The translations under genes and the position numbers were made by a program. This document shows positions 2,411 through 5,383 of a stretch of DNA of 5,383 nt, in pieces. The first letter of the stretch is position 1, and each line of letters opens with the position of its first letter. The notes beneath the pieces are model-generated. The model saw only the letters and a program-made list of their open reading frames with translations. It searched no databases and had not been told where the DNA came from. This DNA comes from a virus (taxonomy: Duplodnaviria; Heunggongvirae; Uroviricota; Caudoviricetes). The stretch is from positions 1-5,383 of IMG/VR virus record IMGVR_UViG_2684622670_000007, one strand, 5' to 3'.

Positions 2411-3118
2411 ATGAAAACATTCGCAGAAAGACTAAATGCAGCCATGAGCTCAGCAGGTGTATCGCAATCACAGCTTGCTGACATGGTTGGAATATCTCAG
2501 CCAGCCATACAGAAGATGTCATCCGGTAAAACAAACGGATCTCGCAAGATGGTTGAATTAGCCAATGCTTTAAAAGTACGCCCTGAATGGCTTAGCTCTG
2601 GTATTGGTGAAATGAGGGATGGTACACATGAAGAACCATCCAATGTCCGTGAATCATCTTTAAAAGCTGTGGTATGGGAAGATATTAAAAGAAACGATGA
2701 CGAGTTTGTCGCGTTGCCTCTTCTTAACGTTTCGCTTTCAGCTGGAAGCGGTAGCTGCGAGCTAGAGGAATCATCAGAGTTCTCTTTGGTTTTCAGAAAG
2801 TACTATCTGAAAAAGATGGGGGTATCTGAAAGATCAGCCAAGCTAGTTAGGGTTGTAGGGCAAAGCATGGAACCAACGCTTCACGACGGAGATGTTGTTG
2901 GTGTTAACACACAAGATACCACAATCAGAGATGGTAAAACCTACGCTATTTGCCAGTCTGATTTGTTACGAGTAAAAACATTAATCGCCACCCCTACATC
3001 GGTGATAATCAGATCAATAAATCGCGAAGAGTACCCAGATGAAGTAATGGATAGAGATGAATTTCATGAAACCGTAAGGATTATTGGCAGAGTATTCTGG
3101 TCGTCTCATAGTTGGTAA
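2411..3118 (+). CDS. cI: CI-like prophage repressor: N-terminal HTH_XRE domain plus C-terminal S24 (LexA-type) autopeptidase domain
   Basis: HTH QSQLADMVGISQPAIQKM; S24 motifs GQSMEP (Ser nucleophile) and RVKTL (Lys); candidate Ala-Gly cleavage site in LSAGSG. The ORF track begins at TTG 2381, but the ATG at 2411 (MKTFAERL...) fits the promoter geometry. Confidence 0.9.
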   Translation: MKTFAERLNAAMSSAGVSQSQLADMVGISQPAIQKMSSGKTNGSRKMVELANALKVRPEWLSSGIGEMRDGTHEEPSNVRESSLKAVVWEDIKRNDDEFVALPLLNVSLSAGSGSCELEESSEFSLVFRKYYLKKMGVSERSAKLVRVVGQSMEPTLHDGDVVGVNTQDTTIRDGKTYAICQSDLLRVKTLIATPTSVIIRSINREEYPDEVMDRDEFHETVRIIGRVFWSSHSW

Positions 3119-3158
3119 CCGATAATCAGAAGAAGACTTACGGAAGTGCGGAGGGATA

Positions 3159-3455
3159 ATGGAATTTCTGATAGTTTTTGTTGTTGTTTTGGTCATCATT
3201 CTTTTTGTTTTGCTAAGCATTAGCAAAAAGCTATCTCAAACGATTGAACATAGCTCTAATCGCGCAAAAGAAGAAGACCATCTAATTGATATAAAAGAGA
3301 TTCTCTCTGATATAAAAATCACATTAGATGAAATAAAATACACAACAGATCTAATTGAACAGTATAAAATACCAACCCCAAACGAGAGAAAAGCAATAGA
3401 TCAATATCGTATTGACTTAGAAATCGACGAAATGCTAAGCAAAAGAAAAGACTAA
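3159..3455 (+). CDS. Small membrane protein (98 aa): one N-terminal transmembrane helix then a charged, probably coiled-coil domain; sits in the position of lambda rexAB and is probably co-transcribed with cI
   Basis: Strong SD GGAGG (3150-3154) before the ATG. Hydrophobic residues 3-21 (FLIVFVVVLVIILFVLLSI) are followed by a K/E/D-rich region. Markedly AT-rich compared with the flanking phage genes. Lies 41 bp downstream of cI and is followed by an intrinsic terminator. Confidence 0.6.
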   Translation: MEFLIVFVVVLVIILFVLLSISKKLSQTIEHSSNRAKEEDHLIDIKEILSDIKITLDEIKYTTDLIEQYKIPTPNERKAIDQYRIDLEIDEMLSKRKD

Positions 3456-3933: not shown

Positions 3934-4140
3934 GTGAAAGCAAGAGAGATTCGCAAACTCGAACGCGCTCGTAAGCACAAAGAGGCGACAGCAAAACGTA
4001 AAAATATTGACCGTGTTTCAATGGTGGTTTCGCTAGCAGGAGCGAATAGGAAGAAGGTTGAATGTGGTTCGTGCTGCCTGCCAAACGTAGCTCTTTACGC
4101 GGCAGGCTACCGGAAATCAAAACAACTGACGGCGAGGTGA
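3934..4140 (+). CDS. N: N-like transcription antitermination protein (68 aa, GTG start)
   Basis: First gene downstream of PL and nutL. Arginine/lysine-rich N-terminus (MKAREIRKLERARKHKEATAKRK). The C-terminal part resembles N proteins of P22-type phages from recall (unverified). Strong SD GGAGG (3923-3927) 6 nt before the GTG. Confidence 0.7.
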   Translation: MKAREIRKLERARKHKEATAKRKNIDRVSMVVSLAGANRKKVECGSCCLPNVALYAAGYRKSKQLTAR

Positions 4141-4161
4141 CGATCCCCCGCCGTCGAGGAA

Positions 4162-4701
4162 CTAAATTAGCTCATCAGCTTTACCAGCAAAGCGCATATA
4201 ACACTCATAGAACCAGACGTCAGGTATAACAAATTTCTCTTTACCTGACGCGCTGTAAGTCACACCTGAGCGATGGAGAAGGCCTTTTCTCATAAGAGAT
4301 AAAGCGACCGGATCGCCGTGCTTAAGTACGATTTTGTTATTTGCCATAACAGCAAATGCTAAAACCTCTTTTTCCTGAATACTCAGAGAATTGAACAGGC
4401 GCTCAGTCTCCACAATTACTTTAGCCTCATCTCTCTTACTGAGATATTTTTTATATCTGTCTGAAGATGCCAGAAATATAAACTCCATCACCCTGTTCAG
4501 AACATAACTGATACACAAAAGCATTGCGTAATACATCCAGTGATCTGGAAGTATTTCGGGGTTCCTTATATCTACCCACTCTTTAATTGATGCTGGGGTG
4601 ATTATTATCAAGGCAATTAAAATAATAAGCATATGAATTAACTGTTGTAGCGTAAGACCACGCAGGAAGAAACGTAATAGTTCCTGCCACCAGTTACTCA
4701 T
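4162..4701 (-). CDS. Membrane protein (179 aa), putative superinfection exclusion protein B (SieB)-like
   Basis: Convergent with and abutting the N-like gene, the arrangement I recall for lambda sieB and N. N-terminal hydrophobic segment (LIHMLIILIALIIITP) and soluble C-terminal domain. GGAG-type SD before the ATG. Low GC. The assignment rests on position, size and topology only. Confidence 0.5.
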   Translation of the reverse strand: MSNWWQELLRFFLRGLTLQQLIHMLIILIALIIITPASIKEWVDIRNPEILPDHWMYYAMLLCISYVLNRVMEFIFLASSDRYKKYLSKRDEAKVIVETERLFNSLSIQEKEVLAFAVMANNKIVLKHGDPVALSLMRKGLLHRSGVTYSASGKEKFVIPDVWFYECYMRFAGKADELI

Positions 4702-4720
4702 CGGTGAATCTCCATCATTC

Positions 4721-4768
4721 TCTCTGTAGGGGTGAATAGAGTTTATCCGATTTCTCGCTGTAGGGGTA
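4721..4768. repeat. Imperfect direct repeat with shared core CTGTAGGGGT in the divergent intergenic region
   Basis: TTCTCTCTGTAGGGGTGAATAGAG (about 4719-4742) and TTTCTCGCTGTAGGGGTACACGAG (about 4751-4774); the cores are ~35 bp apart, between the divergent SieB-like and 149-aa genes. Confidence 0.45.
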
Positions 4769-4846
4769 CACGAGAACCACCGAGCCTGATGTGGTTAAAA
4801 GACAGGCGCAATCTTTACAACCGCAATCCACTATTTAAGGTGATAT

Positions 4847-5296
4847 ATGGAAGAACAAGCAAACAAGATTCTCGTAGAACTACTGCAAAAAGCCAGTAAT
4901 GGAATAGACGCGGCTGTTTCATTTAGCCAGGCACAGATTCCTGATGTTGTTCATCAGTTGCTGCTATGGAATATGGTTGACAGTCTGATTAAAACATTAA
5001 TAGCCATTCTAACAATCCCACTGGTTTTCTGGTTTATGAAGAAGCAGTGCCAAAGAGTTGAGACAGGTAAAATCGGTGATGAAGGATACTCATGGGAAAG
5101 GGGAAATCCCAAATACAGGCCGACAATGGTTTGGGATAGCAAAGGAGATATTAACCTTCTTATCATGCCATTGGTTGGAGTTTTGACTCTGTGGGGGATT
5201 TTTATTATTGGTGTAGTAACCAATATGACTTGGTTAAAAATTTGGCTGGCCCCAAAACTTTACCTTATCGAATATGCAGCATCATTGGTTAAGTAA
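4847..5296 (+). CDS. Hypothetical membrane protein (149 aa, two predicted transmembrane helices)
   Basis: SD AAGG (4837-4840) 6 nt before the ATG. Hydrophobic segments LIKTLIAILTIPLVFWFM and LLIMPLVGVLTLWGIFIIGVV. Low-GC, divergent from the SieB-like gene. No homologue recognised. Confidence 0.55.
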   Translation: MEEQANKILVELLQKASNGIDAAVSFSQAQIPDVVHQLLLWNMVDSLIKTLIAILTIPLVFWFMKKQCQRVETGKIGDEGYSWERGNPKYRPTMVWDSKGDINLLIMPLVGVLTLWGIFIIGVVTNMTWLKIWLAPKLYLIEYAASLVK

Positions 5297-5383
5297 TTTC
5301 AGGCCGCATAATCGTCCTTTATTTTTGGCATAAACAACAGAATAAACACTGCACTGTGTATTCATTCCAACGAGTGAATACAC

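Follow-up and report, generated by a model that had tools for sequence, protein, structure and literature searches.

The closest described system is the sieB/esc/sas locus of phage P22 with the promoter PsieB and the antisense RNA sas, reportedly worked out by Ranade and Poteete in 1993. Other systems offer partial parallels. In the RNA-IN/RNA-OUT pair of IS10, the loop of an antisense hairpin captures the 5' end of an mRNA, and the duplex can then grow along the 5' strand of the hairpin stem. In the type I toxin-antitoxin loci tisB/istR-1, zorO/orzO and shoB/ohsC the sRNAs are divergently encoded, and in the c4 antisense RNA of P1 and P7 repeated a and b elements set heteroimmunity.

The stretch of DNA analysed here (the window, 5,383 nucleotides) was identified by ORF and domain annotation as the immunity and early region of a lambdoid phage. 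An O-like replication gene, a cII-like ORF and a cro-like gene lie on the - strand; a cI-type repressor gene (HTH and S24 peptidase domains) lies on the + strand, as does an N-like ORF (3934-4140), which matches PF25694 and ends at 4140. This ORF is only 68 aa long and has a GTG start and an arginine-rich N-terminus; its match to the Pfam N_peptide profile is confined to the C-terminal portion (positions 44-100). The sieB gene (4162-4701, - strand, 179 aa, PF14163, E = 2.9e-20) is the immediate neighbour on the side of the N-like ORF, is oriented against the pL operon and has the repeats studied here directly upstream. A terminator-like hairpin followed by a T-run is located just past its stop codon (4128-4155, - strand), and gene and hairpin together form a self-contained reverse-oriented unit within the pL operon. 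On the other side of the repeats, a 149-aa ORF (4847-5296, + strand; phrog_3054, function unknown) begins with ATGGAAGAA, a start common to orf28 of lambda and P22. Given this gene arrangement, the + strand is the pL (early-left) direction. The original prediction placed the repeats between the SieB-like and the 149-aa genes, which is confirmed, and took the two genes for a divergent promoter pair, which is not: the 149-aa gene follows N in the pL direction, where lambda and P22 have orf28-ral, and therefore needs no promoter of its own.

The sieB reading frame contains an internal Met24 codon (4632-4630, - strand; HMLIILI) that aligns with the Esc start of P22, showing in the protein alignment that the Esc start Met is kept in the SieB protein of the window; in the P22 GenBank record, sieB exceeds the esc CDS in length by 72 nt. 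Codons 5-13 of sieB, which lie between the two start codons, contain an inverted repeat (GCAGGAA/TTCCTGC at 4662-4668 and 4681-4687). P22 has a shorter one (CAGGA/TCCTG), and this sieB-internal inverted repeat could have a role in the switch between SieB and Esc translation.

The repeats consist of an exact 10-mer, CTGTAGGGGT, which occurs twice on the + strand, at 4724-4733 (the proximal box, box 1) and at 4758-4767 (the distal box, box 2), 34 bp apart from start to start. When one mismatch to CTGTAGGGGT is allowed, the whole window holds three matches against 0.17 expected, a number reached in 0 of 200 shuffles. The two direct repeats with an exact core are real. Their length had been put at roughly 24 bp; the wider likeness covers only 16 nt, TTCTC[T/G]CTGTAGGGGT, of which 15 are identical, and fades beyond.

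Comparison with P22 and lambda showed where these repeats are located. Positions 4604-4858 of the window are 84% identical to P22, and the intergenic DNA is near-identical to that of P22 and SPN9CC (alignment 4718-4850) and 94.5% identical to that of lambda over 127 nt. Upstream of sieB, identity to P22 and lambda is about 91-94%, and DNA homology at 84-94% identity runs through the sieB start and the whole intergenic region. Shared with the P22 locus and its lambda homologue are the boxes, the -10 sequence, the predicted RNA start and the Esc start Met, and the locus likewise lies between N and the genes on the ral side. The locus differs in its SieB protein, which is 49% identical to SieB of P22 and 18-19% identical to those of lambda and Rac, and in the downstream gene, which is the 149-aa ORF and not orf28/ral. 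GenBank records of P22 annotate the PsieB promoter and a 'sieB RNA start site', and both map onto the repeats. The annotated start is the A of ACCCCTACAG, which in the window corresponds to the A opposite T4733.

In P22, sas is a 127-nt RNA of the + strand, for which small-RNA sequencing reads were found only in infected cells (PMC13397905, Table 2; 2026). A review lists sas with 105 nt in its table and describes a translational switch from SieB to Esc (PMC12197685). The 127-nt sequence holds both boxes, at nt 27-36 and 61-70 (sequence from PMC13397905), and aligns with 4697-4824 of the window (+ strand), where we place the sas equivalent; the 105-nt form would fit the span from the complement of the start codon to the end of the pseudoknot described below, at 4807. 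The transcript ends used here rest on P22 homology; for sas, both its ends and its origin (from a promoter of its own or by processing of the pL transcript) are taken from the 2026 sRNA-seq table and the review (PMC13397905, PMC12197685). By homology, by the mapped P22 annotations and by the sas alignment, the repeats are assigned to the already known PsieB/sas control region of P22/lambda-type phages. Rfam covariance models gave no match in 4697-4824 at E <= 1, and seven related loci likewise had no match on the element that reached the gathering score; in full-text literature searches the 10-mer was found only in the P22 sas sequence of the 2026 sRNA paper (PMC13397905). The architecture of box and pseudoknot appears to be undescribed in the searchable literature.

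On the - strand, box 1 reads ACCCCUACAG, which according to the P22 alignment and start annotation would form nt +1 to +10 of the sieB mRNA. With A4733 as start by homology with P22, the 5' UTR would span 4702-4733 (32 nt, - strand), with GGAG before the ATG at 4701. The -10 element of PsieB, TAAACT (4740-4745, - strand), is located between the two boxes, inside the P22 promoter annotation and 6 nt upstream of the RNA start. Box 2 lies at about -34 to -25 of PsieB and overlaps the -35 region; TGTACC (4765-4770, - strand), at the upstream end of the 31-bp P22 PsieB annotation and inside box 2/hairpin HP2, is a poor match to a -35 element. Earlier, no convincing sigma70 hexamers had been found for either gene, and a simple generic scan of 4100-5383 likewise finds no sigma-70 promoter; hexamers do exist, however, and the P22 annotation and the conserved TAAACT -10 were given precedence over the scan. 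This -10 and the start A of ACCCCTACAG are conserved in sequence.

Searches for related loci and for proteins similar to SieB yielded near-identical or very few relatives. A double-core pattern search of viral contigs yielded 60 distinct versions, and 39 diverged copies were aligned; the set was chosen for intact cores and is thus no measure of core conservation, and the only unselected invariant positions between the boxes were A4740, T4744 and A4745, which are positions 6, 2 and 1 of the -10 element. Each of the 66 unique two-box elements, a set retrieved without using TAnnnT as a criterion, has this motif on the - strand, 4-8 nt (mostly 6 nt) ahead of the predicted start, which lies opposite the end of box 1. 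A promoter on the + strand between the boxes was also considered and rejected; judged by eye, no TAnnnT occurs at a fixed + strand position across the types.

A search for the motif in related phages, which the original prediction had called for as a check, showed conserved cores and variable flanks. The loci compared came from P22, lambda, HK620, HK446, Hafnia, Klebsiella and other phages and were fetched by overall similarity or by the SieB protein. With one exception, each of these loci had both cores exact, spaced by 34 bp and set in variable flanks. The exception, ECO95, has exact cores 35 bp apart; Klebsiella phage Kp4882-1, which matched only the pseudoknot part of the query, has no cores. 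Because the cores are conserved across phages, the repeats are conserved elements and not chance occurrences, and they appear to be functional.

On the + strand, the repeats are part of a predicted RNA structure. Box 1 lies in the 14-nt loop of a hairpin, HP1 (4720-4741), in which CUCU (4720-4723) pairs with AGAG (4738-4741). HP1 is weak and its register, as read from the sequences, varies between phages (ACUCU/AGAGU in P22, CUCUUA/UAAGAG in HK620, AAACU/AGUUU in lambda). Box 2 reaches from the upper 5' arm of a second hairpin, HP2 (4752-4776; UUCUCG-C-UGUA[GGGG]UACA-CGAGAA), across its GGGG loop to the first nucleotide of the 3' arm. HP2 was found both in the MFE fold and in the RNAalifold consensus. 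Directly 3' of HP2 lies an H-type pseudoknot (4777-4807) with an A-rich loop 3, in which stem S1 pairs CCAC (4777-4780) with GUGG (4791-4794) and stem S2 pairs GCCUG (4784-4788) with CAGGC (4803-4807).

In 45 distinct sequences, which are kin and from which the structure itself was derived, 91.9% of the cells of HP2 and pseudoknot were paired compared to 83.4% in shuffled sequences (reached in 0 of 500 shuffles); controls with slid partners on the same sequences gave 28-44%. S1 was paired in 97.8% and S2 in 99.6% of cells. Changes on both sides were found in 14 of 21 pairs (in HP2, 9 of 11), and none of the 500 shuffles reached any of the five measures. Compensatory stem variants of the pseudoknot include CCACG/CGUGG together with GCCGGG/CCCGGC, CCUC/GAGG and ACGGG/CCCGU. 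Judged against these controls, the pairs of HP2 and pseudoknot appear to be maintained by compensatory changes. Since G-U pairs (50) outnumber A-C pairs (18), a moderate asymmetry, the + strand is favoured as the structured RNA strand. Folding of the region as a single sequence was no better than for shuffles (z = -0.56), and this held for both strands. On a longer alignment RNAalifold recovered HP2 only, with indels blurring the pseudoknot, and the trimmed set was re-aligned for the pair counts.

Viral contigs were then searched with the pseudoknot alone as anchor, without any box sequence in the query, which yielded 76 further distinct elements. Many of them bear other boxes, TTGTTGGGGA, (TT)GACTGTGGAA, GCATTGGGG and TTGTGGGGG. 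Five or more different boxes were found, each recurring 33-36 nt upstream with 9-10 of 10 positions identical, and in the other box types too the distal copy forms the top of a G-rich-loop hairpin adjoining the pseudoknot. Since each different box is duplicated at the same spacing, the two copies change together. Where stem positions of box 2 drift, the 3' arm of HP2 compensates, and the 3 nt plus GGGG common to box 1 stay fixed; these compensation results come from ungapped cases only, as the automatic hairpin finder mis-called the bulged hairpins of type A. In every box type, the mRNA of the reverse-oriented gene is predicted to begin with the complement of the box. Other relatives have one hairpin only, whose loop would be antisense in cis to the mRNA start predicted there, with the -10 located between hairpin and pseudoknot.

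Three viral contigs (L202, L260 and L190) keep the -10, HP2 with box 2 and the pseudoknot and have lost box 1 and the reverse gene, in place of which another gene end and a terminator-like hairpin are found; they are either decay remnants or 'seed-only' carriers. The module of hairpin and pseudoknot (CCACC..GCCUGA.GUGG.UAAAAG.CAGGC) is widespread in the early-left regions of enterobacterial phages (L159-L263). It always adjoins the 5' end of a reverse-oriented gene, occurs with at least five box types and in single-hairpin forms, and corresponds to no Rfam family.

The box does not follow a particular gene or immunity region. Type A boxes are located upstream of SieB proteins that are 18-49% identical to each other and belong to three very different lineages, and also upstream of unrelated genes of the hkaP-like zinc-ribbon family. 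Boxes of type E as well as type A are found with hkaP-like genes. Carriers of the same box differ in repressors, N proteins and immunity regions, and types A and B are both present in phages of E. coli and Shigella. An operator would be expected to track its cognate DNA-binding protein, which the repeat does not. The presence of the same box with different genes and immunity regions, and of different boxes in one host, argues against an operator, whether for a phage regulator, for the product of the gene itself or for any one host factor. The original interpretation stands in part: the repeats are conserved elements in a regulatory region for sieB. Its reading of them as binding sites is not supported, and a regulator protein is unlikely.

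In a megablast search with positions 4690-4850 of the window, related sequence, counted irrespective of box type, was found in 988 of 5426 complete E. coli genomes, at no more than three places each. Type A elements are also present in Salmonella, Klebsiella, Hafnia, Yersinia, Serratia, Moellerella, Phytobacter and Symbiopectobacterium. In the Rac prophage of E. coli K-12, the element is located upstream of sieB with one mismatch in box 1. The K-12 sRNA KilS (L264, 3906-4003), which lies on the same strand as the Rac pseudoknot and has its own terminator, was considered and rejected; it is an RNA distinct from the element and starts about 60 nt past the pseudoknot, on its downstream side. In Shigella phage SfIV (L265, about 2600-3400), the pseudoknot is followed by about 700 conserved nucleotides with only implausible overlapping ORFs (gp34/gp35) and then by a DUF2303 gene. 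The same stretch is present downstream of the pseudoknot in L187, L160, L191 and L263 and gave no Rfam match at gathering score; it may be a large non-coding RNA or leader. In a Qin-like contig (L164, 1671-1722), a single-hairpin element with pseudoknot precedes DicF (RF00039, 72.5 bits) by about 215 nt, both on one strand. Many matches in genome contigs were discarded as coding tandem repeats or contaminant contigs identical to lambda. The short lambda-identical contigs, several of them with low coverage, came from assemblies of Pseudoxanthomonas, Nocardioides, Vibrio, Paenibacillus, Enterococcus and others (L284, L286, L287, L293, L304-L306 and about 15 more) and most likely represent contamination with lambda control DNA.

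We propose, with a probability of about 60%, that the distal box is an antisense seed and the proximal box its target, the 5' end of the sieB mRNA. During lytic growth or superinfection the + strand would be transcribed from pL, and box 2, as apical 5' side and GGGG loop of HP2, would display a sequence complementary to the 5'-terminal 7-10 nt of the sieB mRNA. The sas RNA or the pL transcript would then nucleate on this 5' end, in cis or, on the mRNA of a resident prophage, in trans. The pairing would block translation of SieB but not access to the internal Esc start, as is reported for P22. The two copies of the box would stay identical because one serves as target and the other as seed. The predicted energies are consistent with such a role: duplexes of HP2 with the cognate mRNA 5' end (14 nt) reach -18 to -23 kcal/mol, compared to -5 to -17 kcal/mol for non-cognate pairs and -7 to -13 for the self-folding of HP2.

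A second seed is not strictly needed, as sas already holds box 1 and is itself fully complementary to the sieB leader in cis. The first 10 nt are the only part of the sieB leaders shared among the mosaic phages. Because only the box is common to otherwise different 5' UTRs, it could serve as a shared handle for recognition in trans, with which a superinfecting phage could disarm the SieB of any prophage that has the same box type. Trans recognition is what we infer here; it is during such superinfection that sas is reported to act. The weakest step of the scheme concerns the pseudoknot, which would probably stabilise or delimit the antisense RNA. Since box 2 overlaps the -35 region, a constraint at the DNA level contributes to its conservation as well.

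Beyond this locus, we tentatively suggest a modular RNA device of lambdoid early-left operons that would be undescribed so far, an extension that we hold to be possible and less probable than the seed-and-target pairing at sieB. It would consist of a G-rich-loop hairpin and an H-type pseudoknot beside reverse-oriented accessory genes (sieB, hkaP-like genes and many small ORFs), and the box in the loop would be a seed that can be programmed to match the mRNA 5' end of the reverse gene. In the two-box forms, the seed hairpin would have moved 34 bp away from its target and the boxes would co-evolve.

Other readings of the repeats have to be weighed against the pairing of seed and target. Box 1 and box 2 might compete for the 3' arm of HP2 and thereby toggle HP2 and pseudoknot, a switch that would affect RNA stability, processing or downstream expression and would leave no role for pairing with the sieB mRNA. 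We consider it unlikely. It is true that in the window and in P22 the repeat extends to 16 nt and includes most of the 5' arm of HP2, and that in every variant inspected box 1 can pair with the 3' arm if wobbles are allowed, in L186, L180 and L250 with a changed 3' arm via G-U pairs. However, the GGGG loop, which is unpaired within HP2, is conserved in box 1 too, the HK620-type and lambda copies show no likeness beyond the 10-mer, and the single-hairpin relatives keep hairpin and pseudoknot without a second box. A little less probable still are operator sites at about -34 and +1, as originally suggested, through which a DNA-binding regulator of phage or host would control PsieB. Repeats that flank the -10 and overlap -35 and +1 are in the classic place for an activator or repressor, and with a -35 as poor as TGTACC/TACCCC an activator is conceivable; the - strand sequence TACCCCT presumably fits the NarL heptamer TACYYMT, which we take as a lead only. 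Against operators stand the association of one box with different repressors, N proteins and reverse genes and the occurrence of different boxes in phages of one host, which fit neither a shared phage protein nor one host factor. In addition, the part of the box that is identical between the copies is centred on an RNA loop, HP2 covaries as RNA, and no candidate regulator gene travels with the box.

That a common RNA-binding protein, for instance a host chaperone or a nuclease that frees sas from the pL transcript, binds the two boxes as loops seems to us less probable again. Two similar G-rich hairpin loops lie 34 nt apart in one RNA, and sas must be released from, or stabilised in, a long antiterminated transcript; the (A/U)CCACC that follows HP2 is similar to the 3' end of a tRNA and, as we speculate, might attract RNase P. 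A single host protein, however, would not tolerate a box that differs between families in the same host, the candidate protein is purely hypothetical, and the type A box is without the GGA motif that CsrA presumably needs. A chance repeat or a neutral remnant of a duplication has a negligible probability. Only the short length of the repeat speaks for it, and the shuffling result, the exact cores across phages of Enterobacterales with diverging flanks and the joint change of the box pairs in five types speak against it; the chance reading is refuted by the conservation.

The seed-and-target pairing proposed here resembles that of IS10, where the 5' end of the mRNA likewise meets the loop of an antisense hairpin. 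The IS10 partners, however, are strictly cis-antisense, whereas the seed hairpin HP2 lies upstream of the mRNA start and is matched to it only via the duplicated 10-mer. As in type I toxin-antitoxin loci, translation of a small membrane or abortive-infection protein would be blocked by an RNA of the opposite strand, and the short complementarity is a direct repeat in the DNA. Unlike those loci, this one has no conserved + strand promoter of its own between the boxes, as judged by eye, and the RNA would probably come from pL; moreover, SieB is an exclusion protein and not a classical toxin, and a pseudoknot is attached. With c4 of P1 and P7 the locus would share short repeated recognition sequences in an early transcript that differ between related phages and define specificity groups, as well as an antisense RNA processed from a longer transcript. 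In contrast to c4, there is no match to the Rfam C4 model, and the target would be the 5' end of the mRNA of the reverse gene and not a ribosome binding site in the same transcript.

For the window, the result is mainly a correct annotation: what looked like orphan intergenic repeats are PsieB and sas of the P22/lambda type, known since 1993. For the lambdoid phages, the box may be a code by which an antisense hairpin recognises the mRNA 5' end of the exclusion gene; mosaic phages would have this code in common, and other lineages would have exchanged both copies for another. If this is true, the code would predict which phages escape the SieB-type exclusion of which prophage, and the hairpin with its pseudoknot would be a new structured RNA family for the annotation of prophage early regions. 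If the modular device proves true, its at least five specificity types (A-E) could set which superinfecting phages silence which prophage exclusion genes.
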